In this document: positions 12,727 through 52,104 of the stretch, piece by piece
Numbering within the stretch: the stretch's first letter is position 1
Layout: each line of letters begins with the position of its first letter
Program-made: the position numbers and the translations under genes
The notes under the pieces: model-generated
Seen by the model: the letters and a program-made list of their open reading frames with translations, nothing else
Told to the model about the DNA's origin: nothing
Database searches by the model: none
Source: a virus
Length of the DNA stretch: 64,000 nucleotides
Virus record (IMG/VR): IMGVR_UViG_3300042566_001780
Coordinates: 129,190-193,189 of that record
Direction: 5' to 3' (one strand)

Positions 12727-12803
12727 CGCCACTTAGCTCAGTTGGTCAGAGCAAGAGCTTCTAACACTCCAGGTCGCGGGTTCGAGCCCCGCAGTGGCGA
12801 CCA
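12727..12803 (+). tRNA. solitary tRNA-like gene, anticodon loop reads uuCUAac (possible CUA amber-suppressor) with weak anticodon stem; encoded CCA
   Basis: 7-bp acceptor cgccact/agtggcg, D arm gctc-agttggtca-gagc, T arm gcggg-ttcgagc-cccgc, CCA end; anticodon stem agagc/actcc has only 3 pairs. Confidence 0.55.
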
Positions 12804-24900: not shown

Positions 24901-25746
24901 GGAAAATTCCATATTTTTGGATATAATGGAAAGACCGCTTTTAGCTCGGACGGATTAACCTGGCAATTTAATAATAAAATTAGACTAACAGAATGGGGAA
25001 TTGATAAAGATATTTTCTGCTCTTTTGCAAATGATGAAATCATTTACGCTGGGGGGACTGATGGATACCTAGTTTTTAGCGATGATTTTGTTGGTATTGA
25101 AATGCATTCCGATTTCAATAATGGTGCAGATTCTGCCGTTATTGATTATCTAGTGACAGGATATTCCTCAAGAAACGAATATTTTAGTGTCAAAAAACAG
25201 CAAACTTTGAGTAAGGCTAAAACTGGAAATATTGCAACAGCCACATTTGGAGTAAACATTACTGGCCAAATAACACCAGCAAATGCAAGCACGTTTATTG
25301 CTAATACTGCAATAGGAACTGCGCAAATTGCTGATGCAAGCGTAGAGACATTAAAGATTGCCGGTAATGCAGTTACCGTTCCGGCTTCAGCGTATACTGC
25401 CGCTGCATTTACGCTGACTACAACATTTGCTGTTATTCAATCAGTTGTAGTTGATTTGCAGAGCGATATTCCGATACCAGTGATAATAACCTCATCATTT
25501 ACTTTAAGTGGCGCAACGGTATCTCAGTTTAGAATTCTTCGTGGAACCACTGTGTTGTTTACATCTGGTGAAATAGTGCAGGGGACTGATGGCATAAATA
25601 AACCAACATCACCTATTTCTATTGCTATTGGTGATACTGCTCCAATAGGAACGTCTACATATTACCTAGAAGCTAGATATGTAAGCGGGTTTACTGCTAG
25701 AACTGCCGCGACTAGAAATCTAACAATATTAGGTGTAAAGAAATGA
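18904..25746 (+). CDS. giant tail fibre / adhesin (2,280 aa) with >=30 Asp-box (BNR, S-x-D-G-x-T-W) ~42-aa repeats
   Basis: Repeats of ...VATSPDGITWTYQSGLASTAWG..INWNGSQY.VAG.SGK... across residues ~480-1800; uninterrupted 6.8-kb ORF. Confidence 0.8.
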   Translation: MPTLVSSGDITISDVNDGLNARLSNESHVIPTDADGLNGDFSGCSTTISVFVGPIDDSANWTITALASPGLTGTLAGRTYTVTALSGDIGYVDLTASKTGFPSITSRFSVSKAVAGTNGQDASQIAVVATQWDYRDDDAAWGIRINGTLQTGAARGHKLVVLNPATNTVSINQNYDTYGSVSNTDSLAAAISAVADGLVVILTTYDATQCNQNLRNALRLCGSESTETWATQRKSHAFIGQKGLPIGAAYEKTGFGTTSAGTSRVAAYFTTSGVVRNGSTAFNAVSAILSNEAHVFTASTAGVVASYVGSGTELRVYDGTVLLTYDGSGTLPGTWKFTNVASNITIGAISDSGAFATIGDHSGVADGVDTSSITYTITGKSLINSDFTLVKVQTFSKAKRGIEGDNAISVTLSNETHVFPATYTNIVSNYRNSGTEIQVLEGATELAYDAAGLTPGTWKVDTSSSNIVAGPVKKFILGDDWVFNDGMGSSGWGVNTAVTCIIWANNQFIAGGTNGKIATSSDGITWSVNENLSKTGWGDSVILDIIWTGVQYVLVGANATYSSDLSIWYANGSINSTAVATSSDGINWEYQPDLNLKTNNGALCIAWNGSKYVAGGQAGLIATSLDAKTWEISTNLSSTAWGTNVSGDSVDVLDINWNGSQFLAVGVLGRVATSPDGVTWTYQAGLTSTAWGTSLTGAVRSINWNGSQYVIVGQGGRVATSPNGITWTYQSGLASTAWGAGAIYSINWNGSQYIVVGASGKVATSPDGITWTYQSGITSVWGSSYDAFTVIWNGSKYVVGGVSGSVATSADGITWANQGGLAGTDKWLDSPVNSGTLLSRYAIIGGDGAKLAVRFNDEWEFQDAFAIKSAIDLTVLDFNGSQYIVGGTNATLAISSDGIYWTYQDGLANASWGTSATYDINWNGFQYMAVGAGGRVATSPDGITWTYQSSLASTTWATATAYSISWNGSQYVIVGTLGRVATSPDGITWTYQGGLASTTWSTATARCIVWNGSQYLVVGQSGRVATSPDGITWTYQGGLRATSWGTLDTVFDVHWNGSQYLVVGDSGKVATSPDGITWTNQTGLSSTTWGTVNEIYSIGWDGSQYVVCGMDGDIATSFDGITWKYQAGLWNTPWGALDYANSIIWDGTQFLVVGDNRKLATSVDGVNWKFKPNLSGWKNSGNVNHLANIDNTVYALGSAGNIACSNNLIDWTFLAPVGAVDIGAVSLTGIAKSANDTLCAIGSNNLVMVGNENQNLSLRLGYASINTRFFANTANKINWNGTQYLAVGNDASIATSVDGVTWVNQVGLISADWGISNINDVHWNGSQYVVVGNSGKVATSPDGITWTNQTGLSSTAWGIDDIFAVAWNGSQYIVGSNYGGIATSPDGITWTYRSGLASTTWGAAAVRAINWNGSQYLVAGASGKVATSPDGITWAYQGGLTSTTWGTTTAYFVNWNGSQYLIGGAAGRIATSPDGITWTYRSGLASTTWGSASTAIVYSINWNGSQYLVAGGSGKVATSPDGITWTYQSGLTSTAWSSSAVFSISWNGSQYLVVGELGKVASSTTGVSWVYGRRLTSTTWGGSDINDIVWNGSQYLVIGDSGKVATSTTGVSWSYQPLLQDTLWRSTNINAINWNGSQYLICGEGGAIATSPNGVTWTYQSGLTSTAWGTTAVYAINWNGSQYLIAGGSGKVATSPDGITWTNQTGLSSTAWGTNTIYSISWGGSQYVIAGNSGAIATSPNGVTWTYQGGLASTAWATSAVRSIVWNGSQYLVAGASGKVATSPNGVTWTYQGGLASTAWGAEIVYSISWNGSRYIVAGGDIGSTGKVATSSNGVTWTFADINNDSSSTPILTKSYYDGTRFILCSSGQLWFSTVGDISFLYPTWTITQALPAGSEWNTNTYASSIAWGNNVFCVVGEYGRVATSVDGNIWIHQELLNSIGGWNYSNINQVIFANGVFCIIGDYGNTAISADGITWQVSNSLVSTDWGRNPITSIVWANGKFHIFGYNGKTAFSSDGLTWQFNNKIRLTEWGIDKDIFCSFANDEIIYAGGTDGYLVFSDDFVGIEMHSDFNNGADSAVIDYLVTGYSSRNEYFSVKKQQTLSKAKTGNIATATFGVNITGQITPANASTFIANTAIGTAQIADASVETLKIAGNAVTVPASAYTAAAFTLTTTFAVIQSVVVDLQSDIPIPVIITSSFTLSGATVSQFRILRGTTVLFTSGEIVQGTDGINKPTSPISIAIGDTAPIGTSTYYLEARYVSGFTARTAATRNLTILGVKK

Positions 25747-29614: not shown

Positions 29615-30340
29615 ATGTCCATTTTACGTGAATTGATTAAACTGCAAGAGAATGCTGATGATATTAAGGTCGTTAAGTCTAATGAACCTTTAGAGTTGTC
29701 TGACATTGTTGAATATTTTCCGTCTAAGCATACAGCAGTGTTAGACAAACTTTGGGGAACTGAACGTTTGACTTGGCATGGTAAAAAGTTCTTTGATGCT
29801 AATAATCTCGGTGATGTTTATGTAGAAGCAGAAGACGCCGTAGATGCTGTTATTGGAGATGTATCTATTGATGCGGGTATTACCTTATCTCCCGTATATC
29901 GTTCAAATCTCCCTGAATTAGATTTTGATCCTGACACTATCGAGTGGCAATCAAAGATCGGCAAGAATGATAAGCAAGAAGTGTATCTTGGCTATGATCC
30001 AAAGACTGATAAGCTCTACATGGGTTTTGATGCTTGGATTGATGAGCAAGATTACAATGACGCCTTTGACGAGCAATTTGAACGTATTGTTGGTGAGCGC
30101 TTTGATGATGAAAACAAAGTCCATGAAGCGATCGCTGAAGAAACATGGAAAAAGTATACGAAGTCCAAGCAGAGCTTTTATGGAATCATTTTTGAAATTT
30201 CATATGATGAAGGTTCAAACTCGATTGATGAAGCATTAGAGTTACCGCAATTTACGAATCCTGGCGGGTTCTATGGTGGCGACTGCTATGGCGAGTTCAA
30301 GCGCCAATACCCTAACGTGATTGATCTTCGTTTGGACTAA
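29615..30340 (+). CDS. acidic hypothetical protein
   Basis: ggagagac RBS before ATG 29615; Asp/Glu-rich. Confidence 0.5.
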   Translation: MSILRELIKLQENADDIKVVKSNEPLELSDIVEYFPSKHTAVLDKLWGTERLTWHGKKFFDANNLGDVYVEAEDAVDAVIGDVSIDAGITLSPVYRSNLPELDFDPDTIEWQSKIGKNDKQEVYLGYDPKTDKLYMGFDAWIDEQDYNDAFDEQFERIVGERFDDENKVHEAIAEETWKKYTKSKQSFYGIIFEISYDEGSNSIDEALELPQFTNPGGFYGGDCYGEFKRQYPNVIDLRLD

Positions 30341-34116: not shown

Positions 34117-34710
34117 ATGGAAGACGAAAACAAGCTAAAGCAACTCGTTGAGTACATCAAAGTCACTGCGCCCATCAAGATTGTGGATGATAATACTGCT
34201 AAGGTCATGGCAGAGATCATCACCACCAATCTGGTCAATGGCATTGAGAATCTGAAACGTGTTACCGGTTCTAGTGCAAAATCCATCCAGCTGCTTAATG
34301 AAAAGTTGGACAGCTACATCCAAAAGGTGAAGTCTGAAGAGAATCAGAAAGCTATTAGGAATGTTGGGTTGAATCTTGCTCAAGCTATGGGCCTAAAGGC
34401 CGCGCAGAAACCTGTAGTTCAACCAAAACCTGTGGTGCAAGTGGCTAAACCAGTTGTGTTGAAGCCAAATAATCTCCACGTAATGGTGAAGACCCACCCT
34501 GATCCAAAAGTCAAACAACCTACTGGTTTGTACAAGGTCCAAGAACTGGTGGTTGAAGGCGATAAAGTCCAAGTGAAAATTCATGGAAACCGCGGATGGG
34601 TTCTTGATAGTCGTGGTGCCATTCCTCTGTTCCTTGATTTCTACAAAAACTATCGAACCAACAAGACAAAGATGACATCTATGTATGATGTGATTCGAAA
34701 CGCAGTCTAA
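34117..34710 (+). CDS. hypothetical protein (197 aa)
   Basis: RBS ggaa; ORF. Confidence 0.5.
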   Translation: MEDENKLKQLVEYIKVTAPIKIVDDNTAKVMAEIITTNLVNGIENLKRVTGSSAKSIQLLNEKLDSYIQKVKSEENQKAIRNVGLNLAQAMGLKAAQKPVVQPKPVVQVAKPVVLKPNNLHVMVKTHPDPKVKQPTGLYKVQELVVEGDKVQVKIHGNRGWVLDSRGAIPLFLDFYKNYRTNKTKMTSMYDVIRNAV

Positions 34711-34752: not shown

Positions 34753-35373
34753 TTGCCTATTATGTTTTCTACTCTCAAAGAAATGTTATCCCTCCAAGAG
34801 GGTGATGTCATCAAAGCCAATTTTGGTAAACCTATTCGGTCTTCAGGAATTCCTGTCCCTCCTGGATTCGACCGATTTGAAGTTGAAGATGTCAATGATT
34901 CTGCTTCCAACATCATTGGTATCAAGGATGGCAATCGCAAAAAAGTATCTACTGCTTCTCCTGAACTAGCAAAAGCTTTGGTAGATGCATATAATCGTGG
35001 TGGTGAAACGTCATTTGATATTCAGCCCATGAAATTTGGCTCCAGTGAACAGCTTGCTCTAGATGATGTTGGTATATCATTGACGGAAAAACCATCTTAC
35101 TGGGATGATTTTGAAGGATCTGGGTATGCTGCTAAGAGAAATCTAAATGATCTCAGTTTAAAGAGAATTGAAAAAGTTTTAGGTAGAAAAATTCCTATAA
35201 TGACTGGTGAAGAAATTTATGGGACTTCAGTGAAACCTCGTGGACCTTTGGCTTCAGTCAAGAATATGCCAGATGACAGTTTTGTTATCATCAAATTTGA
35301 TGATGGATCAAAGTATCTGGCATATACTAGAGAAGCAAATACCTACATTCGCACATGGCAAAAAATCGACTGA
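34753..35373 (+). CDS. hypothetical protein (206 aa)
   Basis: ORF. Confidence 0.5.
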   Translation: MPIMFSTLKEMLSLQEGDVIKANFGKPIRSSGIPVPPGFDRFEVEDVNDSASNIIGIKDGNRKKVSTASPELAKALVDAYNRGGETSFDIQPMKFGSSEQLALDDVGISLTEKPSYWDDFEGSGYAAKRNLNDLSLKRIEKVLGRKIPIMTGEEIYGTSVKPRGPLASVKNMPDDSFVIIKFDDGSKYLAYTREANTYIRTWQKID

Positions 35374-35855: not shown

Positions 35856-35940
35856 CCATCAGATGCCAAACTGGTTATGGCACTCGACTTTTAATCGAGC
35901 GCGTTACGCTTTGTGGGTTCGAGTCCCACCTGATGGACCA
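35856..35940 (+). tRNA. tRNA-Lys(UUU)-like, 85 nt with long (13-nt) variable arm; encoded CCA
   Basis: Acceptor ccatcag/ctgatgg, D gcca/tggc, anticodon stem ctcga/tcgag loop cuUUUaa, extra arm gcg-tta-cgc, T gtggg-ttcgagt-cccac. Confidence 0.6.
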
Positions 35941-35948
35941 AAGTTTTT

Positions 35949-36024
35949 GCCTGTTTAGCTCAGTTGAGAGAGCAAAATGTTGATAACGTTTAGGTCGCTG
36001 GTTTGAGTCCAGCAACAGGCACCA
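35949..36024 (+). tRNA. tRNA-Ile(GAU)
   Basis: Acceptor gcctgtt/aacaggc, anticodon loop ttGATaa, T gctgg-tttgagt-ccagc, CCA. Confidence 0.8.
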
Positions 36025-36030
36025 AAAAAT

Positions 36031-36115
36031 GTCGCGTGTTGGCTGCTGGTAACGGCCCTCACCCTTTCAAGGTGACGTCTTTATGACTGCGGTTCGATTC
36101 CGCCACGCGACGCCA
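36031..36115 (+). tRNA. tRNA-Glu(UUC)-like, 85 nt with long variable arm; encoded CCA
   Basis: Acceptor gtcgcgt/acgcgac, anticodon stem tcacc/ggtga loop cuUUCaa, extra arm gtc-tttat-gac, T loop ttcgatt. Confidence 0.55.
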
Positions 36116-36121
36116 AGTTAT

Positions 36122-36193
36122 TGGGGGATTGTCATCTGGTGATGACATTGCGCTTTGACCGCAAGAAGGTGGGTTCGATCCCCACTCCCCTTG
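36122..36193 (+). tRNA. tRNA-Gln(UUG), no encoded CCA, U1-U72 mismatch
   Basis: D gtca/tgac, anticodon stem ttgcg/cgcaa loop cuUUGac, T gtggg-ttcgatc-cccac. Confidence 0.6.
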
Positions 36194-36203
36194 CACTTGA
36201 CAT

Positions 36204-36241
36204 AATTGTTCTCCTATAAATAGAGTATAAGGAGAACAATT
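36204..36241 (+). promoter_or_regulatory. perfect 12-bp inverted repeat enclosing TATAAATA late-promoter motif and sequestering the aggag RBS of the GIY-YIG gene
   Basis: aattgttctcct / TATAAATAgagtata / aggagaacaatt-ATG; TATAAATA at 36215..36222. Confidence 0.6.
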
Positions 36242-36910
36242 ATGCAAAAAACACAAAAGAAATATCATTATATTTATAAAACAACTTGTCTAATTACTAA
36301 AAAATTTTATATAGGCATGCACTCAACTGATAACTTAAATGATGGTTATCTTGGAAGTGGAAAGATTCTTAGTTATTCTATTGCCAAATATGGTAAGGCC
36401 AATCATGTTTGCGAAATTTTAGAATATCTACCTAATAGAGAAGCACTAAACGATCGTGAAAAAGAAATAGTAAATGAGGATTTATTAAATCATCCATTAA
36501 ATATTAATCTTGTATATGGTGGTTCTGGTGGAACTCATGGAAAAGAGGCCGAGGTATGGGCAAGACCGGGGTATAAAGAAAGAGTAGCTATTTCTTTATC
36601 TAATGCGATGAAAAAACGTTGGTTACATATAGAATATGCAAATAAAATTAGTTTGCATAGGAAAATACTTTGGACTAATGATGAATATCGAAACAATATG
36701 CTTGTTGTTTTGCGATCGGCTTTTTTGGGAAAACAACACACTGCAAAAAGCAAAGCATTAATTGGTGAAAAAAATTCAATAAGTCAATTAGGATCAAAGA
36801 ATTCCCAGTTTGGAACTTGCTGGATTACTAATGGAATAAAACCAATTAAAATAAAGAAAGAGTGTCTTGACGAATATTTGGTGAAGGGGTATCGTTTAGG
36901 AAGAAAATAA
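36242..36910 (+). CDS. GIY-YIG homing endonuclease (NUMOD3-containing)
   Basis: YHYIYKTTCLITKKFYIGMHST GIY-YIG motif; HTAKSKALIGEKN NUMOD3. Confidence 0.8.
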   Translation: MQKTQKKYHYIYKTTCLITKKFYIGMHSTDNLNDGYLGSGKILSYSIAKYGKANHVCEILEYLPNREALNDREKEIVNEDLLNHPLNINLVYGGSGGTHGKEAEVWARPGYKERVAISLSNAMKKRWLHIEYANKISLHRKILWTNDEYRNNMLVVLRSAFLGKQHTAKSKALIGEKNSISQLGSKNSQFGTCWITNGIKPIKIKKECLDEYLVKGYRLGRK

Positions 36911-36935
36911 TTTGTTCATGTTTAGTGTTATTTGC

Positions 36936-37008
36936 TGGCCGGTAGCTCAGTTGGTAGAGTGTCGGGTTGTTACCCCGGGTGTCGCGAGTTCGAATCTTGC
37001 CCGGCCAG
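36936..37008 (+). tRNA. tRNA-Asn(GUU), no encoded CCA
   Basis: Acceptor tggccgg/ccggcca, D gctc/gagt, anticodon loop ttGTTac, T gcgag-ttcgaat-cttgc. Confidence 0.7.
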
Positions 37009-37021
37009 CAAATAGCATTAT

Positions 37022-37099
37022 AGGGGAGTAGCTCAATTGGCAGAGCGCTGGTCTCCAAAACCAGAGGCTGTTCCGGTTCAAATCCGACCTCCCCTGCCA
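37022..37099 (+). tRNA. tRNA-Trp(CCA), encoded CCA
   Basis: Acceptor aggggag/ctcccct (as in bacterial tRNA-Trp), anticodon stem ctggt/accag loop cuCCAaa. Confidence 0.75.
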
Positions 37100-37154
37100 A
37101 TAATTATAACTTCGATCATCAAAATTTGGTGATGATGGAGATTTTAAAAACAAT

Positions 37155-37230
37155 CTGCACTTAGCTGTTCTGGTGAAAGCATGGCGCTGAAAACGCCGGG
37201 AGACTGGTTCGATCCCAGTAGTGCAGGCCA
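37155..37230 (+). tRNA. tRNA-Phe(GAA), encoded CCA
   Basis: Acceptor ctgcact/agtgcag, anticodon stem tggcg/cgccg loop ctGAAaa, T actgg-ttcgatc-ccagt. Confidence 0.75.
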
Positions 37231-37237
37231 AAATTAT

Positions 37238-37311
37238 GGTGTTGGTAAGATAGTGGTAGTCCGCCTGTCTGTGAAACAGGAAGCGAGGGTTCGATTCCCC
37301 CCTTCACCCCA
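37238..37311 (+). tRNA. probable tRNA-His(GUG) with G-1:C73 and atypical acceptor/T stems
   Basis: Anticodon stem cctgt/acagg loop cuGUGaa; extra 5' G pairing C73 then CCA; two U-U mismatches in acceptor stem. Confidence 0.5.
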
Positions 37312-37318
37312 AAATAAT

Positions 37319-37394
37319 GCCAATGAAGCAATCTGGTGATTGCACCTGACTGTCGATCAGGTTCAGGCGAGTTCGATCCTCGTCATTGGCGCCA
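37319..37394 (+). tRNA. tRNA-Asp(GUC), encoded CCA
   Basis: Acceptor gccaatg/cattggc, D gcaa/ttgc, anticodon loop ctGTCga, T gcgag-ttcgatc-ctcgt. Confidence 0.8.
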
Positions 37395-37399
37395 TTCAT

Positions 37400-37474
37400 G
37401 GTTCATTGGCCGAGAGGCGAGGCAACTTCTTCATGCGGAGTCCTACAGTAGTTCGAATCTACTATGAACCACCA
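37400..37474 (+). tRNA. tRNA-Met/Ile2(CAU), encoded CCA
   Basis: Acceptor ggttcat/atgaacc, anticodon stem acttc/ggagt loop ttCATgc, T agtag-ttcgaat-ctact. Confidence 0.7.
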
Positions 37475-37478
37475 AAAA

Positions 37479-37552
37479 GCCCCTGTAGTTCAATGAAAGA
37501 ACACACCTTTGGTACGGGTGAGAAGACAGTTTGATTCTGTCCTTGGGCACCA
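37479..37552 (+). tRNA. tRNA-Thr(GGU), encoded CCA, two acceptor-stem mismatches
   Basis: D gttc/gaac, anticodon stem cacct/gggtg loop ttGGTac, T gacag-tttgatt-ctgtc. Confidence 0.6.
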
Positions 37553-37601
37553 ATCTTTTGCTAAATAGATCCTATGTAGCCTTTTCGTAGGAGAAACACT
37601 C

Positions 37602-38198
37602 ATGCTAGTTAGCGAGCTTTTTGAAGCAAGAAACCCAAAATTAACCTATACCGAGAAACAAGTCAAGAAGGTCTTAGACCGGGTGACCGTTGAATTGACT
37701 GGAAATGAGAGTGGCGTTATGTCACGTTTAACTACTCGTTATTCCCGTTTAGACAAAGCTGCAAAATTAATGCAGGAAAAGCGTAATGCTCTAAACGAGG
37801 AAATGAAGCAAGTAGCAGAAAGCTTGTTTGATGCTCAAGATGAAGTGTTGACTCGTGTTGTGGATACGGTGTCATACACCATTACTTTGTCTAAAGCAGA
37901 AAAGGCAGAATCAAAATCCCCAACCAAAAAAGTTGATTATTCTGCAGTGGTAAAAGAGCTTGCTCAGATGTTGCCTGAATTACAAGAAAAGATCGACCAA
38001 ATCACTGAGCAATACACCGAAATTATTCAACCAAAAGATACCCCGGTTAAGTTAATTGTTAAGTCAAAACTTGATGAAGGATTCACCGCTTTTGCAAAAT
38101 CTTTAGTCAAGTCATTCAAAGAAATGCTGAAATCTATCAAATCTTGGGGTAAGGATTATGATAAGAGATTGGCTGCTTTGAAGAAACAGACATCATGA
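37602..38198 (+). CDS. hypothetical protein carrying the shared M-L-x-x-E-L-F-E N-terminal leader
   Basis: MLVSELFEA start; helical/charged; directly upstream of the LRR array. Confidence 0.5.
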   Translation: MLVSELFEARNPKLTYTEKQVKKVLDRVTVELTGNESGVMSRLTTRYSRLDKAAKLMQEKRNALNEEMKQVAESLFDAQDEVLTRVVDTVSYTITLSKAEKAESKSPTKKVDYSAVVKELAQMLPELQEKIDQITEQYTEIIQPKDTPVKLIVKSKLDEGFTAFAKSLVKSFKEMLKSIKSWGKDYDKRLAALKKQTS

Positions 38199-38911
38199 AA
38201 CTTAGACAATTGCTTGAAAGCCAATCTCAATTTCTTCAAACAAGAGAAGAGATTGAAGCATGGCTCCAAAAGATGAAAATTGAAAACTACACCATTAGAA
38301 ATGATCTTATGGTAGATGTTGATGGGGATGTTAACCTTTCTTTTAAAGGCTTATCATTCATTCCAGTCCAATTTTTCACAGTTATTGGAAATTTTTGGTG
38401 TTCACATAATCAATTAACATCACTCGACGGAGCACCTAGAGAAGTTGGCAGAGATTTTGAATGCGGTGAAAATGAGTTAACTTCTCTTAAGGGAGCACCT
38501 AGGGAAGTTGGTGGAGATTTTGATTGTTCTCATAATCAATTAACATCTCTTAAGGGAGCACCAAAAGATGTTGGCAAAGATTTTGATTGCAGCAATAATC
38601 AATTAACATCTCTTAAGGGTGCACCTAGAGAAGTGGGCGGAAATTTTTGGTGTTCACATAATCAATTAACATCACTCGACGGAGCACCAAGAGAGATAGG
38701 CGGTCATTTTAATTGCAGCACAAATCAATTAACATCTCTTGAAGGTGCTCCAAGAGAAGTAGGCGGAAGTTTTTATTGTAGATGGAATAAATTAACTTCC
38801 CTTGAAGGTGCACCTAGAGAAGTTGGTGGAAGTTTCAATTGTACTGGTAATGAATTGGCTTCATTAGATGGCATTGGAAATGTCACAGGTCAAATTTATT
38901 CGGATCTCTAA
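38195..38911 (+). CDS. leader-bearing BspA-type leucine-rich-repeat protein (paralog 1)
   Basis: MKLRQLLES leader; ~8 repeats NQLTSLKGAPREVGGDFDCSH. Confidence 0.65.
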   Translation: MKLRQLLESQSQFLQTREEIEAWLQKMKIENYTIRNDLMVDVDGDVNLSFKGLSFIPVQFFTVIGNFWCSHNQLTSLDGAPREVGRDFECGENELTSLKGAPREVGGDFDCSHNQLTSLKGAPKDVGKDFDCSNNQLTSLKGAPREVGGNFWCSHNQLTSLDGAPREIGGHFNCSTNQLTSLEGAPREVGGSFYCRWNKLTSLEGAPREVGGSFNCTGNELASLDGIGNVTGQIYSDL

Positions 38912-38912
38912 A

Positions 38913-39383
38913 ATGAAGCTAAAACAATTATTTGAAAATAGCAATAACCAATTTCTTCAAACCCGAGAAGAAATTGAGACATGGCTCCAAAAGATGAAAA
39001 TTAGAAACTACACCATCAGAGATGATCTGATGGTAGATGTTGATGGTAATGTAGATTTAAGTAAAAAGAATTTATCATTTATTCCAGTCAAATTTTGGGA
39101 AGTTGGTGGAGATTTTGATTGTTCTCATAATCAATTAACATCACTCAATGGTGCTCCCAGAGAAGTTGGTGGAAGTTTTTGGTGTGGCCGTAATCAATTA
39201 ACATCTCTTAAGGGAGCACCTAGAGAAGTTGGTAGAGGTTTTTTCTGCTATAACAATCAATTAACATCTATTGAAGGTGCTCCCAGAGAAGTAGGCGCGG
39301 ATTTTAACTGCAGATTTAATAAATTAACATCTCTTGATGGCATTGGTAATGTAGGTGGCCAGATTTATTCGGATCTATCATGA
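38913..39383 (+). CDS. leader-bearing LRR protein (paralog 2)
   Basis: MKLKQLFEN leader at ATG 38913; 5' ~130 nt near-identical to paralog 1; LTSL-GAPREVG repeats. Confidence 0.65.
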   Translation: MKLKQLFENSNNQFLQTREEIETWLQKMKIRNYTIRDDLMVDVDGNVDLSKKNLSFIPVKFWEVGGDFDCSHNQLTSLNGAPREVGGSFWCGRNQLTSLKGAPREVGRGFFCYNNQLTSIEGAPREVGADFNCRFNKLTSLDGIGNVGGQIYSDLS

Positions 39384-40141
39384 AATTAAGACAATTATTT
39401 GAAAATAGCAATACCCAATTTCTTCAAACTAGAGAAGAAATTTCTAATTGGTTGCTCGACAATACCATTCTCAAACCTCATGATTTCCAAATCAATGCCG
39501 ATTTAACTGTTGACGTTTTTTCTAGCTTCAAAATCTTCATGTCAGCATGGGATTATGATTTGTACCGGCTGCCAGTGCGATTTGGATATTGCACTGGCAG
39601 TTTTGCACTATCTCGTATAGCAAATCTACAAACATTAGAAGGTTGTCCAACCCATGTTGAAGGCTCTTTCTTTTGTGAAAGAACAGGCATCCAGGACCTC
39701 CAGGGTGCTCCCAGGGAAGTCGGTGGAGATTTCTTTTGTGGCTATTCAGAATCTCTAATGTCACTCGTGGGTGCTCCAGATAAGGTTGGAAGAAACTTTA
39801 AATGCAATAATTGCCCTGATTTAGAATCTCTAGAGGGCGGTCCTTCTGAAGTTGGCTATGACTACAATTGCTCTTATAATGCATTGCGATCCTTAGTCGG
39901 AGCTCCTAGAGAAATAGGTGGTGAATTTGACTGCTCAAATAATGAATTATTTTCTCTAAAGGGAGCGCCTAGGGATGTTGGTCTTTCATTTGATTGCGCA
40001 AATAATAATTTGACATCATTGAAGGGTGCTCCATTGCACATAGGCGAAGATCTTATAGCTTGGGGAAATCAAATCGCCGGTTCTGCAAATTACGGCTATA
40101 CACCCCGATCTATTGGCGGTGAAATAATCGGGGTTGAATAA
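39380..40141 (+). CDS. leader-bearing LRR protein (paralog 3)
   Basis: MKLRQLFEN leader; GAPREVGGDF / GAPDKVGRNF repeats. Confidence 0.6.
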   Translation: MKLRQLFENSNTQFLQTREEISNWLLDNTILKPHDFQINADLTVDVFSSFKIFMSAWDYDLYRLPVRFGYCTGSFALSRIANLQTLEGCPTHVEGSFFCERTGIQDLQGAPREVGGDFFCGYSESLMSLVGAPDKVGRNFKCNNCPDLESLEGGPSEVGYDYNCSYNALRSLVGAPREIGGEFDCSNNELFSLKGAPRDVGLSFDCANNNLTSLKGAPLHIGEDLIAWGNQIAGSANYGYTPRSIGGEIIGVE

Positions 40142-40911
40142 TGAAATTAGTTGACTTGTTTGAATCAGAAGATGATTTTGATTTCACTACCAAAGATGGA
40201 ATAGCAGAGTGGTTAAAAGTAAATTATATTTGGGAGTTTTATGACATTCATGATGACTTAAGTGTATCTGTTTTTGACAATGTCAATATCACAGTTCTTG
40301 GAAAAGACAAGTCAAAAATTCCAGTTAAGTTTAGAAAAGTATACGCATTTTTAACTGACGTACCAATTACCTCTCTTGAAAATTTTCCAGATTCAGCAAG
40401 AGAAATTATTATTCAAAGTGCAAAAATAAAGAATTTGCAAGGAATCACCCAAGATACCTTTGCATATTCAATACAAGCATGTAAAGAGTTGGAATCTTTA
40501 GATGGATTGCCGCAAGAAGTTAATGGAAGCATTTACATTAACAGATGCCCAATTACTTCCTTAAAGGGATCACCATTAAGAATCGACGGAGATTTTTCTG
40601 TTGTTCGGTGTGGTTTAAAGTCGTTGAGATATGGCCCAAGAGAAGTCACTGGATTACTCGATATACGAAAAAATGAACTAACTTCACTAAAAGGATGTCC
40701 TGAAGGTGTTGATTACATAGATGCCACATCTAATTTGATCACTAATTTGATTGGTGTTCCGGAATCAGCAGATGAACTCTATTTAACAGATAATCCTTTA
40801 GAATCTTTAGAAGGATTGCATGATGGTCGTATTGTTGTTAGATCTATAGGTGCTAATATTTCAAAAGACGAAAAATTGAAATACCCAAATGCCACAATTG
40901 TGACTGAATGA
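40141..40911 (+). CDS. leader-bearing LRR protein (paralog 4, diverged)
   Basis: MKLVDLFES leader; LESLDGLPQEV / ITSLKGSPLRI repeats. Confidence 0.6.
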   Translation: MKLVDLFESEDDFDFTTKDGIAEWLKVNYIWEFYDIHDDLSVSVFDNVNITVLGKDKSKIPVKFRKVYAFLTDVPITSLENFPDSAREIIIQSAKIKNLQGITQDTFAYSIQACKELESLDGLPQEVNGSIYINRCPITSLKGSPLRIDGDFSVVRCGLKSLRYGPREVTGLLDIRKNELTSLKGCPEGVDYIDATSNLITNLIGVPESADELYLTDNPLESLEGLHDGRIVVRSIGANISKDEKLKYPNATIVTE

Positions 40912-40926
40912 AACTGGAGAAAAGTT

Positions 40927-42426
40927 ATGAAATTGAAAGAACTATTAGAATCATATGATGAATTTGACTTTTCTACCAAAGAAGGTATTTCTAATTGGCT
41001 AAAAGAAAAAGGCAACAGAATTGGCAATTACACTATACACGATGATTTGAGTGTATCATTCCATAGCACTGTTTATTGGCATTGGCTGGATGGGATTACT
41101 AAATTACCATTCAAAATTCGCGATGTTAATGGCACCTTTGAGCTCAATGACGTTCCATTAACTACCCTGGAAAATTTTCCAGATAACGCTAATACAATCC
41201 ATCTTGAAAGTCTTGATATTGAAGACTTGACAGGAATTACCCAAACAGCAGAACGATATATTATCAAACACTGCCCTAATTTGAAAAGTCTAGATGGATT
41301 GCCGCCTCATGTAGAAGGCCTAGACCAATGGGCTGGAGTGTTTATTCATAATTCTGGAGTTGAAAGTTTAAGCGGAAGTCCAAGCACAATAAACGGCGAT
41401 TTTGTTGTAATTCGATGCAAATTGAAGTCACTCAAATACGGTCCCAGAGAAGTAACTGGTGAATATGACGTTGAATATAACCAGTTAGAATCGCTGAAAC
41501 ACAGCCCAAGAGCAGCAAGCCAACTATTAGTCGGATATAACAAAATAACATCTCTTAAGGGATGCACACCTGGTATTACTGTATTGAATATTGAGGGAAA
41601 TCCAATATCTTCACTAGATGGATTGCCGGAATCTCTACATAATGATGGTATCGTGTATGCCGAGAGGACAAATATCAGTGATGAAGAAATAGCAAAATAC
41701 CCAAATGGATTCTTCATCAAAGATCATGGAATGTTTGTTGCTGAAGGATGGAAAGAAAAAGCGCAAGTTGCGGGCGCAGCGGCATTAATGGCTACTGCTC
41801 TATTGGTGAATCGCGGACCAGAGGAAGCCCCAAGTGATAGGGCAATTGCAGGAAAAATTGATCATTCTAACATTTCTGTAGAAAAACCAAAATTGAATAA
41901 CAAATCGTCTGTCTTTAGTGGTTCAGCTAAAGTTCTTTATGATGAAGCGAAGAAGCAGGGTATACGCGGGGCAGAATTGATTCAATTGATTGCGCAATCT
42001 GCACATGAGACTGCAAATTTTGGTAAGCTTATTGAGATGGGTAGTAAGGATTATTTCAAGAAATATGATCCCAAACATAACCCAAGGAAAGCCGAAATAC
42101 TTGGAAATACTAAGGTTGGAGATGGTGAAAAATTTAAAGGTCGCGGTTTTCTCCAATTAACGGGTCGTGATGTTTATATGCGAGCTGGAAAAGCTTTAGG
42201 ATTGCCACTAGAAGAGAAACCGGAATTGTTAGAAGATCCAAAGATTGGTGCTAAAGCGTCAATTTGGTTCTGGAAAACCAGGGTTCAGCCAAAGGTCAAA
42301 GATTTCTCTGACGTTGAAGAAGTCACCCAATACATTAACCCGGGATTAAAGGGGTTATCTGATCGACAAAAGAAATTTCGAGAATTTTCTAATCTCTATA
42401 ATCTAGAAACAAAAAAGTCAAAATGA
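40927..42426 (+). CDS. leader + LRR N-domain fused to TM segment and GH19/lysozyme-like (COG3179-type) domain
   Basis: MKLKELLES leader; TM AQVAGAAALMATALLV; C-terminal AQSAHETANF ... EKFKGRGFLQLTGRDVY matches the GH19 signature [FHY]GRGxxQL(T/S). Confidence 0.7.
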   Translation: MKLKELLESYDEFDFSTKEGISNWLKEKGNRIGNYTIHDDLSVSFHSTVYWHWLDGITKLPFKIRDVNGTFELNDVPLTTLENFPDNANTIHLESLDIEDLTGITQTAERYIIKHCPNLKSLDGLPPHVEGLDQWAGVFIHNSGVESLSGSPSTINGDFVVIRCKLKSLKYGPREVTGEYDVEYNQLESLKHSPRAASQLLVGYNKITSLKGCTPGITVLNIEGNPISSLDGLPESLHNDGIVYAERTNISDEEIAKYPNGFFIKDHGMFVAEGWKEKAQVAGAAALMATALLVNRGPEEAPSDRAIAGKIDHSNISVEKPKLNNKSSVFSGSAKVLYDEAKKQGIRGAELIQLIAQSAHETANFGKLIEMGSKDYFKKYDPKHNPRKAEILGNTKVGDGEKFKGRGFLQLTGRDVYMRAGKALGLPLEEKPELLEDPKIGAKASIWFWKTRVQPKVKDFSDVEEVTQYINPGLKGLSDRQKKFREFSNLYNLETKKSK

Positions 42427-42432
42427 GTTAGA

Positions 42433-43107
42433 ATGAATAGAGTTTTTGTGAAGGTTCTATTCAACATGTCAGATCAATTGATTTCTTTGGAATTAACTGC
42501 GCAACAGTTTTATCATTCAAAGTTCAACACATATCACAATTGGGAGCATATTTCTTATGTGCTTTCCCAATATAGAGCAATCTTCAAAAAAGATCCAAGC
42601 AAGACAGAATTTGCAGCCATTCTGTTTCACGATTGCATCTATGTACCAGGTTCTCCTCATGGAGTCAATGAAATGCTGAGTGCGATAACTGCATGTAAAG
42701 TTGTCAAGTTCTCAAACTTCAAAGACATTGATGTAGAGTTGTTAGAGAAAATTATTCTGGCTACGAAGGTCCAAAATTATTTAGATCCTGGATTCTATGA
42801 TGAAGATTGCAATCGCGTGCTGGATGCAGATGTCGCGTCGCTAGCTGCACCGTATGAAGATTTTTTGCAAAACAATGCAAATATCATTTTTGAGAATCAT
42901 GGGCCCGTTCGATTTGGGTATGAAATGGATATTTGCAGTTATGCTTCTGTTGAATTTCTGTTGAAACTTAGTTCAAGATTATACATTTACAGAACTCAAG
43001 AAGCGCGAGAATTACTTGAGGAAAAAGCACGCGACAATATTGACAGGTTTAAACGAAATCCAAGAGACATCAATAGCTATTTGATTAAGTCTTCAGATTT
43101 TTGCTAA
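42433..43107 (+). CDS. HD-domain phosphohydrolase
   Basis: HNWEH ... ILFHDCIY (H..HD) motifs. Confidence 0.55.
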   Translation: MNRVFVKVLFNMSDQLISLELTAQQFYHSKFNTYHNWEHISYVLSQYRAIFKKDPSKTEFAAILFHDCIYVPGSPHGVNEMLSAITACKVVKFSNFKDIDVELLEKIILATKVQNYLDPGFYDEDCNRVLDADVASLAAPYEDFLQNNANIIFENHGPVRFGYEMDICSYASVEFLLKLSSRLYIYRTQEARELLEEKARDNIDRFKRNPRDINSYLIKSSDFC

Positions 43108-43110
43108 TTT

Positions 43111-43434
43111 CTAGCAATCTTCTCCATTTGGTATGTTTTGATCATGCCACTCCCCTTCAATGCAATGCCTGATTTCGTGCAGAAGGCATCTAGGGTAATT
43201 TCGCAAATTAATTATGCAAATTTTTTGTTGATTGACATCTATTAATCTAGCGGATCCTTGAATTTGGGGATTATTGAATCTACTAGGATCGGAATGAATA
43301 ATTAGCCTGAAATCGGAATGAACGATTTCGGGTTTTTTACTGGCACTGAATTGCGAATGACCAGTGCCCGCGCATGCAGTCAGAAGCACAATGAATAGAA
43401 CAGATATGAAATAATTCATAGGTGGGAATAGCAT
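43111..43434 (-). CDS. small lipoprotein with HExxH motif
   Basis: Lipobox VLLTAC; CLLHEIRHC. Confidence 0.45.
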   Translation of the reverse strand: MLFPPMNYFISVLFIVLLTACAGTGHSQFSASKKPEIVHSDFRLIIHSDPSRFNNPQIQGSARLIDVNQQKICIINLRNYPRCLLHEIRHCIEGEWHDQNIPNGEDC

Positions 43435-49552: not shown

Positions 49553-51367
49553 ATGGCAGATTTAAACACTTGTCCAAATGGGGCTGGATCAATTAACAAT
49601 CCAGCAAATGCATTACCTGAAATTCCGGCATATGTAGTACCTGAAATTCCAGATGTCAACTATTCAGTCACTGACTGTTTAGTTGACTCAAATATACAAG
49701 AGCAAATTGCAGTTGAGGCTCTCAATATCAGCGGAGCTCCGCTCAACATATTCAAGCTCCTAGGTGTTCATGAACAGGGCAAACTAATTGACTTAACAGG
49801 AAATGGTACTCCGCTTAATGGAAGTGATAATGTTTTTGATTCACTCGCATCTAATTGGGCATCTTCTCAAGTGGGAATGGCTGTGTTGACAACCCCATCA
49901 TGGGTAGGATATGATTTTGGTGTTATAAAAACGAGTTATGGATTGGACGCAAATGGACCTGGTATTGCAAACAATCAGCATATTACATCATTGAGAATTA
50001 CTCAACCTGCTCAAAATAGACGGGCTCTTCAAATTAAAGTTGAACAATCTGATGGGCAATATTCATTATCCAGCCTAATCATTACTGGTTCTGGTACTGC
50101 TACTATTACTGACTTCACCGCTGGGCCCAAATGCAAACCTGGTATATTTTCATTAGTAGCTGATGCAACTAATTCATTTACGGTTTTCTTTATTTCAGGT
50201 ACCACTGAATTAGTCGGCATCTTAAAGCCTAATCTTAGATTCAATTCAAATTACGGATCATTCACGTTAACATCAAATTCCACTTTTGCCAATGGCGACA
50301 TCATCACTGCATCAATTCAATTGAAGTGGAATCGTGTTGATATTGTTAATTTAGTAGATGACGCTACAGCGCAGAATGTTCGCATTAAACAATCTAAGCC
50401 ATCTCGCTATTGGAGAATAGTGCCTACATCATTTAGTGGTGTTGCTTTAAATGAGCCCTGGGAAATATCAAAGCTTGAGCTTTTTGATTATCAAACCACA
50501 CGGCTTGATGATATTCAGGATCCACTATTACTTGAGAATCGCGACCGTGATTATGCATCTCAATCAGTTCAATTAAAGGTTGCCTATCAACCAACTGATA
50601 CTATATCTGATCTATCCAAATTTGGATTTCAGATGACAGATAGTTTCACATTTACCGCAAGCTTTGCCCAAATGGTGAAATTACTTGGAAGGCCTATCGT
50701 AGTCGGTGACGTTTTAGAGCTTCCAAGTGAAATGCAATATGACCAAAATCTGAAACCGGTTAGAAAGTTCTTAGAAGTATCAGATACATCATGGGCGGCT
50801 GATGGGTATACGACTGCCTGGAAACCGATTATGTATCGATTCCAAGCATCTCAGTTAATTCCATCTCAGGAACATCGCGACATTCTTGGCACCGTTGACA
50901 CTCAGAAATTCCTTGTTGATGACGGTACTTTCCTTGATGGTATTGAACAAATTCAAACTGCTCCATTAACGATTTCGCAACAAGTAAAAACTGAAGCCTT
51001 ACAAGAAGTACCAGAAAAAGGTACGAACGTAACTGAAATTGCATCTGGTACTAGTCGATACGGTGAACCTGGTACTTATGATGGACGTGATCTTTATGTT
51101 GAAGATGGGTTACCACCAGATGGGTTACCATATACCGAAGGCTTCAAACTCCCAGATGTAACTGATGCTTCTGATGGAGATTATTTCAGATTAAACTATG
51201 ATCCAAAGATGAATATTGCTTCACGTCTTTACAAGTTTAGCTCAGTTAAAAATAAGTGGATTTATGTTGAAACTGATAGACGTCCTATTAATACTTCACA
51301 CAAGCCTTCACAATTACAAGTCATGCAACAACCTAAAGTCGTTTCCTTAGAAAGCAAAAACCTATGA
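49553..51367 (+). CDS. virion structural protein (604 aa)
   Basis: Tightly packed with neighbours in structural block. Confidence 0.5.
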   Translation: MADLNTCPNGAGSINNPANALPEIPAYVVPEIPDVNYSVTDCLVDSNIQEQIAVEALNISGAPLNIFKLLGVHEQGKLIDLTGNGTPLNGSDNVFDSLASNWASSQVGMAVLTTPSWVGYDFGVIKTSYGLDANGPGIANNQHITSLRITQPAQNRRALQIKVEQSDGQYSLSSLIITGSGTATITDFTAGPKCKPGIFSLVADATNSFTVFFISGTTELVGILKPNLRFNSNYGSFTLTSNSTFANGDIITASIQLKWNRVDIVNLVDDATAQNVRIKQSKPSRYWRIVPTSFSGVALNEPWEISKLELFDYQTTRLDDIQDPLLLENRDRDYASQSVQLKVAYQPTDTISDLSKFGFQMTDSFTFTASFAQMVKLLGRPIVVGDVLELPSEMQYDQNLKPVRKFLEVSDTSWAADGYTTAWKPIMYRFQASQLIPSQEHRDILGTVDTQKFLVDDGTFLDGIEQIQTAPLTISQQVKTEALQEVPEKGTNVTEIASGTSRYGEPGTYDGRDLYVEDGLPPDGLPYTEGFKLPDVTDASDGDYFRLNYDPKMNIASRLYKFSSVKNKWIYVETDRRPINTSHKPSQLQVMQQPKVVSLESKNL

Positions 51368-52104
51368 GACTAAAAGAATTATTCGAAGACATTCATGTCA
51401 TAAAGGATATCTGGACTAAGGAAGAAGCAGATGATCGAGTAGCCAATACTGCATTTCGGCTTGAAGATAAATGGAAAAAATATCCATCAAAAATAAAGTT
51501 TCCAGTCGAAAACTTTGAAGTAGTTCAAGTTAGAAATGCTGGCATCATTATTGACTGGGAAATAGGTTTGCGTAACAAACTGAACGGGCAATTTGCTGCT
51601 ATCTTGAATGCAGACCAGACCTCTATCAAAGTTGGCAAAAAGAAAATAGTTGGTAAAGCTACATCTGTTGCTTCAGTGAATGGCAATTATCTTGGTCAAG
51701 GACTAATGCAAAAGCTCTACCAATACTTGTCTGATAATGGAGAAATTCTATTCTCGTCAACAGACCAGTCTTTTGGTGGTAAAAAGCTATGGCAAAAATT
51801 TGTTCAGGAAAACAACGAAAACACCTTCTTAGTGTTAGAACTGTTTGAGCATAGCTTTTCATTTGTTCAATCAAAAAATAGTTTTGGCAGATTAAGAAAT
51901 GCTGAAGGAGTGTCACCACTTGAATTCTATGAAAAGAATAAGAGTAAAAATGGTGTAGCTCTCATCATCAAAGCTGATTATGACAAACTAATCAAACTTG
52001 CATATTTGAAGTCTTCGGGTAGTTTCAATCCAAGCTATTTTATGACACTGCCAAAAGGCCATCCCCTCATTAGCGAATTCAATTCAATAGCTTTCAGACC
52101 ATGA
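51364..52104 (+). CDS. hypothetical protein with M-R-L-K-E-L-F-E leader
   Basis: MRLKELFED start matches the leader family although body is unrelated. Confidence 0.5.
   Translation: MRLKELFEDIHVIKDIWTKEEADDRVANTAFRLEDKWKKYPSKIKFPVENFEVVQVRNAGIIIDWEIGLRNKLNGQFAAILNADQTSIKVGKKKIVGKATSVASVNGNYLGQGLMQKLYQYLSDNGEILFSSTDQSFGGKKLWQKFVQENNENTFLVLELFEHSFSFVQSKNSFGRLRNAEGVSPLEFYEKNKSKNGVALIIKADYDKLIKLAYLKSSGSFNPSYFMTLPKGHPLISEFNSIAFRP

Follow-up and report, generated by a model that had tools for sequence, protein, structure and literature searches.

A tandem array of leucine-rich-repeat genes with a shared T4-like N-terminal leader as a candidate internal-protein locus of a jumbo myophage

The stretch of viral DNA analysed here, referred to as the window, comprises 64,000 nucleotides (nt) of IMG/VR record IMGVR_UViG_3300042566_001780 (positions 129,190 to 193,189) and carries an array of genes for short leucine-rich-repeat (LRR) proteins. 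Five consecutive genes, g1 to g5, lie in tandem on the + strand at 38195-42426 and an inverted sixth copy, g6, lies at 61472-62653, an arrangement that an earlier note on this DNA had described and that was borne out; g0 denotes the gene upstream of the array. The LRR proteins share an N-terminal leader that resembles the propeptides of T4 head proteins. The explanation favoured here, to which we give about an even chance, is that this is a locus of the T4 “internal protein” (IP) kind, the leader-tagged LRR binders of which would be packaged in the virion, probably in the head, and delivered with the DNA. The coupling of g0 to the array, the T4-like leader, the fusion in g5 of a GH19 domain to a hydrophobic segment and the existence of a published virion homolog had not figured in the earlier note.

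The shared N-terminal leader

All six LRR proteins begin with the consensus MKLxxL[FL]E[SN], the first 8-9 residues being common to all. In g1 (38195-38911, +; 238 amino acids (aa)), the leader MKLRQLLE is followed by an N-terminal cap (N-cap) and eight LRR units of 21 residues. g2 (38913-39383, +; 156 aa), the true start of which is at 38913 and not at that of the longer open reading frame (ORF) from 38868, has the leader MKLKQLFEN and four units, g3 (39380-40141, +; 253 aa) has MKLRQLFEN and ∼7 units, and g4 (40141-40911, +; 256 aa) has MKLVDLFES and degenerate units. g5 (40927-42426, +; 499 aa) is a three-part protein of LRR, hydrophobic helix and GH19 domain, in which the leader MKLKELLES and the LRR domain make up the N-terminal part (aa 1-270; 40927-41736, +). 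In g6 (61472-62653, −; 393 aa), the leader MKLAQLFEN is separated from the N-cap and ∼8 LRR units by an unrelated domain of ∼140 aa. No further LRR genes were found in the 64-kb window.

The leader was also present on two unrelated, non-LRR proteins of the window. One is g0 (37602-38198, +), a 198-aa coiled-coil protein that begins MLVSELFEA and matched no Pfam or PHROG family, and the gene for which shares an ATGA overlap with g1. The other, a 246-aa protein encoded between neck and tail-sheath-stabiliser genes (51364-52104, +), begins MRLKELFED; its ortholog in L004, one of the related loci or contigs that were compared with the window under the labels L002-L019, begins MKLKELFEE. Because it heads these two proteins and is set apart from the LRR by the insert in g6, the leader is separable from the LRR. 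The sequence [EQD]L[LF]E occurs 14 times in the 19,432 residues of 68 window ORFs, and eight of these occurrences fall exactly at residues 5-8, against 0.05 expected. Orthologs on other contigs retain the leader. In AlphaFold2 (AF2) models the leader alone was of low confidence, with a predicted local distance difference test (pLDDT) score of only 58 for g1 residues 1-10, against more than 93 for the remainder, and of less than 50 for g5 residues 1-8.

Further leader-like N-termini, MSILRELIKLQEN, MEDENKLKQLVE, MFSTLKEMLSLQE and MQTRFINPLDELFE, were seen at 29615-30340, 34117-34710, 34762-35373 (+) and 61017-61475 (+), respectively, and to judge from these sequences the leader-tagged set may extend upstream of the transfer RNA (tRNA) cluster that precedes the array and beside g6. 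The 51364 protein contains a Q-G-L-M-Q-K-L-Y stretch resembling a GNAT motif; Pfam returned nothing for this protein, for the insert domain of g6 or for the 61017 protein.

The window leaders were set beside T4 N-termini taken from NC_000866, namely MKTYQEFIAE (IPII and IPIII), MKTFKEFTST (IPI), MAKINELLRE (gp24), MLKEQLIAE (gp22), MNEPQLLIE (gp21) and MEGLIE (gp67). In T4, such N-terminal peptides serve to target their proteins to the core of the prohead, and gp21 cleaves them (PMC9026906, PMC5694885). As in T4, the leader of the six LRR proteins, g0 and the 51364 protein stands on unrelated proteins and ends in an [LI]-x-E site; the similarity is one of type, and the window leaders resemble the gp21-substrate propeptides without being identical to them.

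Among the Met-start proteins listed, an [LIFMV]-x-E site was found within the first 14 residues of 72% of matches to the GH19 region of g5 and 60% of LRR matches, as against 20% of other window ORFs. The stricter MK/MR form was found in 47 of the 116 GH19 and 35 of the 118 LRR matches listed, and in 1 of 60 other window ORFs. GH19 homologs with unrelated N-terminal parts nearly all begin MRAxEFIxE or MRxTDLxET, of which MRAxEFIxE is close to the T4 capsid-targeting sequence (CTS). Outside the leader, no internal [LI]-x-E sites were present in g1, g2 or g6, and the repeat consensus itself excludes the motif. g0 contains five internal [LI]-x-E sites (2.4 expected), which recalls the prohead core or scaffold proteins that are degraded by protease.

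Association of a homolog with virions

The nearest cultured relatives of the window are Ralstonia phage RsoM2USA and Xanthomonas phage XacN1, with protein identities of 33-44%. RsoM2USA (locus L008) contains three tandem LRR paralogs, locus tags 88-90, that start MKLHEISE, MKTFKQFLSES and MSFKTFLES and that the record gives as “hypothetical protein” and not as LRR proteins. Sodium dodecyl sulfate-polyacrylamide gel electrophoresis of purified RsoM2USA particles and then liquid chromatography-tandem mass spectrometry (MS) of the most abundant bands led to the assignment of ten bands, including ORF89 and ORF132 (PMC8504454). That study gives ORF89 a mass of 28.57 kDa, calls it unknown/uncharacterized, and words its nine non-capsid assignments as “most likely correspond to” (PMC8504454). 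Locus tag RsoM2USA_89 encodes a protein of 253 aa and 28.56 kDa, so the numbering agrees with the published mass.

ORF89 aligns from residue 1 with g2 (E = 3e-15) and g3 (E = 3e-13), g3 being the most similar window gene; an ORF89 homolog was not found in XacN1. ORF132 is a non-LRR protein that begins MKTFKQFLNT, which is the leader of ORF89 and is close to that of T4 IPI. RsoM2USA ORF379 is a homolog of T4 gp21 (38% identity, E = 6e-24). The case for packaging is made most strongly by this clade having both a T4-type protease and, in the virion, two unrelated proteins with the leader, of which one is an LRR homolog. The products of ORF88-ORF90 resemble the window proteins in their homologous N-cap and LRR (E about 1e-13 to 1e-15), their organization as a tandem three-paralog array and their leader-like starts, and the two phages belong to one clade by their neck and structural genes. 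They differ in having more degenerate repeats, another conserved C-terminal tail and no GH19 fusion, at ∼28% identity. Just downstream of the RsoM2USA array, ORF86 (L008 6923-9445) encodes an 840-aa protein with a P-loop-like GDPGVGKT near its N-terminus, which is also among the MS-identified virion proteins; a homolog was not detected in the window.

It is possible, if unlikely, that the LRR proteins are not packaged but act in the cytoplasm in host takeover or anti-defence, the shared N-terminus being the first helix of the fold or a preference in initiation and the ORF89 band being carry-over. The purity of the RsoM2USA preparation is indeed uncertain, because a band of a “putative transposase,” ORF38, was also obtained (PMC8504454). 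The g1-g4 translations contain no signal peptide or membrane segment, many homologs start MKYLKTYxxFE and continue directly into the cap, so that this start could be a structural element, and AT-rich codon bias could account for part of the conservation of the 5′ DNA. Such an account sits poorly with a leader that is detached from the LRR in g6, present on non-LRR proteins and predicted at low confidence beside a remainder above 93. It also leaves aside that two unrelated MS-identified RsoM2USA virion proteins share MKTFKQFL and that GH19 homologs with unrelated middles nearly all begin with the T4 CTS-like MRAxEFIxE.

A position on the outside of the particle appears distinctly unlikely. The LRR proteins would then be appendages of the baseplate, fibres or collar that recognise the host surface, with the N-terminus docking and the GH19 domain of g5 digesting the wall from outside. 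Conserved N-termini and variable distal parts are typical of receptor-binding protein families. The presence of ORF89 in RsoM2USA virions fits the surface as well as the interior (PMC8504454), and an LRR-like gene lies in the tail module of a Vibrio phage (PMC10945359). In the chimallivirus Goslar, virion-associated jumbo-phage paralogs likewise consist of a conserved N-terminal attachment module followed by LRR/β-helix and glycoside-hydrolase domains, and a host-recognition “fiber cloud” has been proposed for them (bioRxiv 10.64898/2026.04.21.720040). The Goslar proteins differ in that their N-terminal module is DUF7941, which is confined to chimalliviruses, in their proposed external location and in belonging to an unrelated lineage. 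With regard to the window proteins, what follows the nine-residue leader is predicted by AF2 to be an integral solenoid cap and not a docking domain, and no fibre, coiled-coil or trimerisation domain is present. Unrelated proteins carry the leader, which matches the propeptides of T4 head proteins, and the array is placed next to the tRNA cluster and not within the blocks of tail and baseplate genes. A soluble surface structure would be an odd place for the hydrophobic helix of g5.

Repeat unit, fold and LRR class

In g1, g2, g3 and g6 the repeat is a strict 21-residue unit, L-T-S-L-x-G-A-P-x-E-V-G-G-x-F-x-C-x-x-N-x. The 21-aa period that the earlier note had given for all five tandem genes does not extend to g4 and g5, the units of which are looser (20-22 residues). 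Repeat-position statistics were obtained from 13 window units and 604 homolog units. Across the latter, L1, L4, G6, P8, V11, F15, C17 and N20 are nearly invariant, with L1, L4, F15, C17 and N20 kept in at least 97% of units and C17 in 98%. The most variable positions in the 604 units (>3.1 bits) are 14, 16, 18 and 19, which flank F15 and C17 and would lie on the concave β face. When units are read in tandem, the LRR core motif, x-F-x-C-x-x-N-x-L-T-S-L, is present. The AF2 model of g1, for which 40 homologs were used, was a regular predicted solenoid of two-strand units with a pLDDT of 95.4 and a predicted template modelling (TM) score of 0.89, in keeping with the LRR solenoid fold foreseen in the earlier note. 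Residues 10-265 of the g5 model had pLDDT values of 78-94.

The proteins had previously been attributed to the LRR_5/BspA class, the repeat of which is about 23-25 residues long and reads L-x-x-I-x-I-P-x-x-V-x-x-I-G-x-x-A-F-x-x-C. Bacterial LRR, a conserved Cys and a P-x-x-V...G segment are indeed common to both. In stark contrast to this attribution, none of the six proteins matched PF13306 (LRR_5) at E ≤ 1 with hmmscan, the period is 21 and not 23-25, and BspA-like chains were absent from the top structural and profile matches. Foldseek with the g1 model returned YopM, IpaH and SspH1 as best matches (TM score of about 0.6), with InlJ lower in the list, and in a profile search of PDB sequences InlJ ranked first (E = 7e-22) and SspH2, SspH1 and IpaH came next. 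Pfam LRR_4 was matched above the cut-off by g1 only (32.6 bits versus 27) and below it by g2, g4 and g5, and no Pfam LRR model matched g3 or g6. The BspA/LRR_5 class was accordingly rejected. Because no LRR_5 match was obtained and the nearest structures are InlJ, SspH, IpaH and YopM, the proteins are, on predicted structure and sequence, short bacterial InlJ-like LRR solenoids and not of the BspA/TpLRR type.

InlJ of Listeria (PDB 3bz5), which has a cysteine-ladder LRR, shares with the phage proteins a 21-residue unit in which a core Cys replaces a hydrophobic residue (F-x-C-x-x-N-x-L-T-x-L). The phage proteins differ from it in carrying the variable segment G-A-P-x-E-V-G-G and in lacking the LPXTG anchor; no signal peptide, internalin N-cap, immunoglobulin-like inter-repeat region or surface anchor was found in the translations or matched in Pfam. 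YopM, IpaH, SspH1/2 and SlrP, which include the best Foldseek matches, have a short bacterial-type LRR of 20-22 residues and are small solenoids that reach the interior of a target cell and bind a host protein there, as is proposed for the phage proteins. Unlike these type III effectors, the phage proteins have no type III signal and end shortly past the LRR, the NEL E3-ligase domain being absent; their delivery would be by ejection and their targets would be bacterial.

The LRR-GH19 fusion protein g5

Downstream of its LRR part, g5 contains an Ala/Gly-rich hydrophobic helix, EGWKEKAQVAGAAALMATALLVNRGP, at aa 273-298 (41743-41820, +). This putative membrane segment is invariant in seven g5 orthologs that are otherwise 51-56% identical. 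A muramidase/chitinase-like GH19 domain (41959-42426, +) then follows, which matched PF00182 at E = 1.4e-10 (41.8 bits versus a cut-off of 25.5). The g5 C-terminus also matches the PHROG endolysin family phrog_181 (E = 3e-33), and the sequences AHET and KGRGFLQLTG are invariant in g5 orthologs. Among the matches listed, the LRR-GH19 fusion was seen in only seven protein clusters, and more than 100 other, non-LRR GH19 homologs combine a related hydrophobic segment, EEGWKDWVAGAA..., with unrelated N-terminal parts. Cultured phages yielded only remote matches, none of them above 42% identity or with the hydrophobic segment. Taken from its sequence, g5 would be an ejected, membrane-inserting, wall-cutting hydrolase, the alternative being an unusual endolysin.

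The homologs of g5 residues 270-499, P0128-P0240, constitute a metagenomic GH19 family with highly variable middles (weak GNAT, DUF6934 and LysM matches, those to GNAT being below threshold), and some are encoded on contigs of 290-345 kb.

Were g5 such an endolysin, the locus could be a lysis or cell-wall module in which the LRR is wall-binding or regulatory and g1-g4 are degenerate duplicates. The GH19 domain, with its endolysin PHROG matches, would suit a module of this kind, and the Ala/Gly-rich segment is reminiscent of signal-anchor-release endolysins. This reading is nevertheless very improbable, given that the hydrophobic segment is internal (aa 275-291) and not N-terminal, that g3-g5 are not decaying but under purifying selection, with ratios of nonsynonymous to synonymous substitution rates (dN/dS) of 0.05-0.16, that LRR genes occur without any lysin in L002, L003 and RsoM2USA, and that the window has another lysin-like gene at 1435-2526.

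Divergence of the paralogs and variation among relatives

The paralogs form a diverging family, with protein identities of 70-81% for g1-g2 (about 70% by BLAST), 48% for g1-g3, 44% for g1-g6, 45% for the LRR parts of g4 and g5 and about 32-35% between g1 and g4 or g5. The earlier note took g1 and g2 to have near-identical 5′ ends and saw in the family a conserved 5′ cassette joined to variable 3′ ends. On comparison, the first 145 nt of g1 and g2 were 82% identical (119/145), little above the ∼77% of their repeats, and the 3′ ends were conserved too. As both gene ends are conserved, g1 and g2 differ mainly by four internal repeats and not by a variable 3′ end. The motif FLQTREEIE..WLQKMKI is present in g1 and g2 only; g3 has FLQTREEI, and nothing beyond MKLxxL[FL]E[SN] is common to all six. 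Within g1, a 50-nt exact repeat (38387-38436 and 38639-38688) is offset by 252 nt, equivalent to four units, and points to recent duplication or conversion inside the gene because the background identity between g1 units is about 77%.

Exact DNA matches between g6 and the array reach 17 nt at most, the longest being the leader-coding sequence ACAATTATTTGAAAATA of the g2 start, which is contained in the 5′ segment of g6 (62627-62653, −). On this length, inversion between g6 and the array, for which g6 had been proposed as a substrate, was rejected. No inverted arrangement of the loci was seen in relatives, and the synteny of both is kept in L004, L005, L010 and L017. Diversification of BspA-type proteins through a 5′ cassette with variable 3′ ends and array-g6 inversion is hence hardly credible. 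A loose motif resemblance (P-x-x-V-x-x-G, F-x-C), the inverted orientation of g6 and the conserved 5′ ends speak for it, and set against these are the LRR class, period and nearest structures described above, the conservation of both ends of g1 and g2, the short exact match and the retained synteny.

Copy number and repeat number do vary among related phages, as the earlier note had anticipated, and the locus is non-core. In L010 there are three g1/g2-class genes (175, 196 and 196 aa) versus two in the window (238 and 156 aa), together with an extra LRR gene 5′ of the tRNA cluster. L004 and L010 (g5 52% identical) are syntenic with the window across the whole region. Flanking genes of the window and L010 share 63-85% identity (85% for g0), and LRR parts 37-55%; within g5 itself the LRR part is 37% and the C-terminal part 66% identical. 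In L019, the g0 ortholog (78% identical) is followed by no LRR gene.

L017 has flanks that are 90% identical in DNA to window 63372-62508 and contains, in order, a NUDIX gene, an HNH gene, a 178-aa g2-type LRR gene and the g6 ortholog, at a place where HNH and g6 of the window are just 27 nt apart. The extra gene starts at the g6 start codon, so that the leader-coding 5′ segment of g6 is a boundary of the cassette insertion or deletion, and its 3′ junction (CAAATTTATTCGGATCTATCATGA...) is that of g2/g3 in the window. At the sequence level this fits the acquisition or loss of a whole gene through recombination at the conserved stretch that codes for the leader.

A more stable picture was obtained for g3-g5. 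In L005 (g5 90% identical), g3, g4, g5 and the downstream HD hydrolase gene are kept one-to-one and at the same lengths; the g3 ortholog is 89% identical there and 55% identical in L010. Between the window and L005, dN/dS for g3-g5 was similar to the 0.10 of the HD gene, consistent with purifying selection, and gene-wide positive selection on g3-g5 was rejected on the values given above. The earlier proposal of recombination-driven diversification can be retained for the conserved 5′ segment that bounds the L017 cassette, but not for g3-g5, which are syntenic and not fast-evolving.

A protein search limited to 8,000 candidates gave more than 7,400 significant homolog matches, many of them on phage-like contigs of 100-385 kb. 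Phage-like contigs 343 and 384 kb in length carry tandem LRR arrays that have 4-13 repeats between conserved ends. Ten places match in the 735-kb phage genome that is the largest known, PHROGs 21719 and 7816 are also matched, and BFVD contains LRR proteins of uncultured Caudovirales and giant viruses. Given the number of homologs, the arrays on phage contigs and the PHROG matches, LRR genes are not rare in large phages, contrary to what had been supposed of tailed phages. Comparison of the array DNA with 50,697 phage records gave no match, IMG/VR scans with g1 and g0 gave no relatives, and only two contigs, both short, came from the one metagenome scan made with g0. Fusions of a dUTPase to the 21-residue LRR were seen in P0006, P0007, P0077 and BFVD entry A0A481YU71. 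The last, labelled Marseillevirus LCMAC102, is 37% identical to g1 and could reflect either misbinning of a phage contig or inter-realm transfer.

Genome context

The context is best explained by the array being an accessory locus in the ∼290-kb genome of a T4-superfamily jumbo myophage. T4-like neck, sheath-stabiliser, sheath and tube genes show that the window belongs to a large myophage; it also has 12 tRNA genes (ARAGORN) and auxiliary genes, those for NAD salvage among them, and a contig of 291,687 bp carries two of the proteins of the window.

ATGA overlaps are found at the g0/g1 and g2/g3 junctions and TAATG at g3/g4. The overlapping junctions that had been ascribed to the whole array are therefore confirmed for g2/g3 and g3/g4 but not for g1/g2, which reads TAAAATG, or g4/g5, where a 15-nt spacer contains GGAG. 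An HD hydrolase gene (42433-43107, +) lies downstream of g5. In a pattern scan, no terminator-like hairpin was found on the + strand within 37600-43100, the first convincing one 3′ of the array being at 43304-43334 (+). Since no hairpin intervenes, g0-g5 and the HD hydrolase gene are probably a single transcription unit.

Directly 5′ of the array is a cluster of 11 tRNA genes (35856-37552, +; ARAGORN), interrupted by a GIY-YIG homing-endonuclease-like gene (36242-36910, +). With the array and a lysozyme-type domain coming after it, this layout parallels tRNA/segB-ipI, where the tRNA cluster with segB adjoins ipI, and e-ipIII-ipII in T4. A second GIY-YIG endonuclease-like gene (60199-61014, +) is a paralog of the first, and an HNH endonuclease gene (62681-63283, −) directly adjoins g6, such that mobile endonucleases flank both LRR loci; in L010 the slot of the tRNA cluster is filled by another gene. 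The T4 late-promoter-like motif TATAAATA occurs nine times in the window, against 3.4 expected, examples being at 36215 (just 5′ of the GIY-YIG gene), 34723 and 28102 (−).

Elsewhere in the window, a tRNA gene at 12727-12803 (+) has the anticodon CTA (tRNA-Pyl by ARAGORN) and is of amber-suppressor type. The stop codons of 68 long ORFs are TAA in 36, TGA in 26 and TAG in 6, and partial TAG reassignment or readthrough in the phage is possible. In three pairs of nearly full-length opposite-strand ORFs (298-1404/343-1389, 1420-2502/1435-2526 and 7834-8781/7870-8769), either strand may be the coding one; the C-terminus of 1435-2526 (+) is endolysin/transglycosylase-like. An ORF of 2,280 aa (18904-25746, +), with a GC skew of +0.23 to +0.25, lies beside tail-protein-like genes and probably encodes a giant structural or fibre protein.

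Discussion

The elements found here are of known kinds, in that the locus combines LRR proteins with T4-type leader-tagged virion proteins. We infer a head location, leader cleavage, injection, target binding and a role for GH19. The leader would act as a T4-like CTS that binds the prohead core and is removed by a gp21-type protease after [LI]-x-E. The N-capped solenoid of 4-8 units, built on a stacked Cys/Phe core, would bind a host macromolecule through its variable face, and each paralog could have a target of its own, such as a defence nuclease, in the way that T4 Ip1-3 each block one GmrSD variant. In g5, the hydrophobic helix and GH19 domain would make an ejected protein that inserts into the membrane and cuts the wall. 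As the comparisons show, the repertoire changes when repeat units of 63 nt, or entire genes at the leader-coding sequence, are gained or lost.

In T4, three injected, leader-sharing proteins each inhibit a different GmrSD nuclease and are encoded in a variable hotspot (PMC12373910), and shuffling of the IP palette takes place among related phages (PMC4122927). As described by the papers that cite it, Repoila 1994 presents IP shuffling in terms similar to leader-sequence recombination (PMC12373910, PMC4122927). Like T4 IPI, IPII and IPIII, and also gp24, gp22 and Alt, the window proteins have a short leader rich in K, Q, E, F and L that ends in [LI]-x-E on otherwise unrelated proteins. Like the IPs, they are encoded by non-core genes that lie beside tRNA and lysozyme genes and vary between related phages; the gp21 homolog in the clade and the homolog in virions are both known from RsoM2USA. 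By contrast, the window leader is 8-9 residues long and in another register from MKTYQEFIAE, the T4 IPs are small basic proteins as opposed to LRR solenoids of 17-28 kDa, and Ip1-3 have only the leader in common when the window paralogs are homologous to one another.

Several observations weigh against an IP-like locus. The differences in length and register from the T4 CTS are one, and the leader could be simply the first helix of a conserved N-terminal module. Depletion of internal [LI]-x-E sites, taken as a signature of exposure to the prohead protease, is no guide in either direction, as none was found in the RsoM2USA proteins and the T4 IPs are too short to give such a comparison power. 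The RsoM2USA evidence, obtained from excised gel bands, is of virion association only, and ORF89 shares no more than about 28% identity with the window proteins. The head genes of the window phage, and any prohead protease gene, lie outside the 64-kb window, and a T4-type late promoter motif is absent directly before g0. Since g3-g5 are stable one-to-one orthologs under purifying selection, signs of an arms race are confined to more distant comparisons and to the g1/g2 class, and the cassette insertion is known from one metagenomic contig of 1.4 kb. The proposed external location of the Goslar proteins also belongs here. If the idea of the leader is wrong, what remains is a well-characterised but ordinary expansion of an LRR paralog family.

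A more general proposal, for which we consider the chances to be somewhat short of even, is that T4-superfamily jumbo phages load a changeable repertoire of LRR binders by means of a T4-like leader and inject it, as a counterpart of type III LRR effectors. Other leader cargo would include a membrane-anchored GH19 muramidase and possibly acetyltransferase-like domains, and new specificities would arise through repeat gain or loss and gene swaps at the leader-coding sequence.

Injected phage proteins are the first phage products that host immunity meets, and outside T4 few of them have known targets; even those of T4 Ip2 and Ip3 were found only recently. If the present explanation is correct, it would account for the abundant 28.6-kDa “unknown” protein of RsoM2USA virions. 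Should the leader be a portable packaging tag in jumbo phages, it would provide a sequence rule for spotting injected proteins in uncultured giant phages, point to LRR solenoids as a programmable binding scaffold used by phages against bacteria, and offer a means of loading foreign proteins into the capsids of these phages. Under the more general proposal, the thousands of metagenomic LRR proteins that begin MK(Y/H)LKxYxxFE would form an extensive, unrecognised group of proteins injected by phages.

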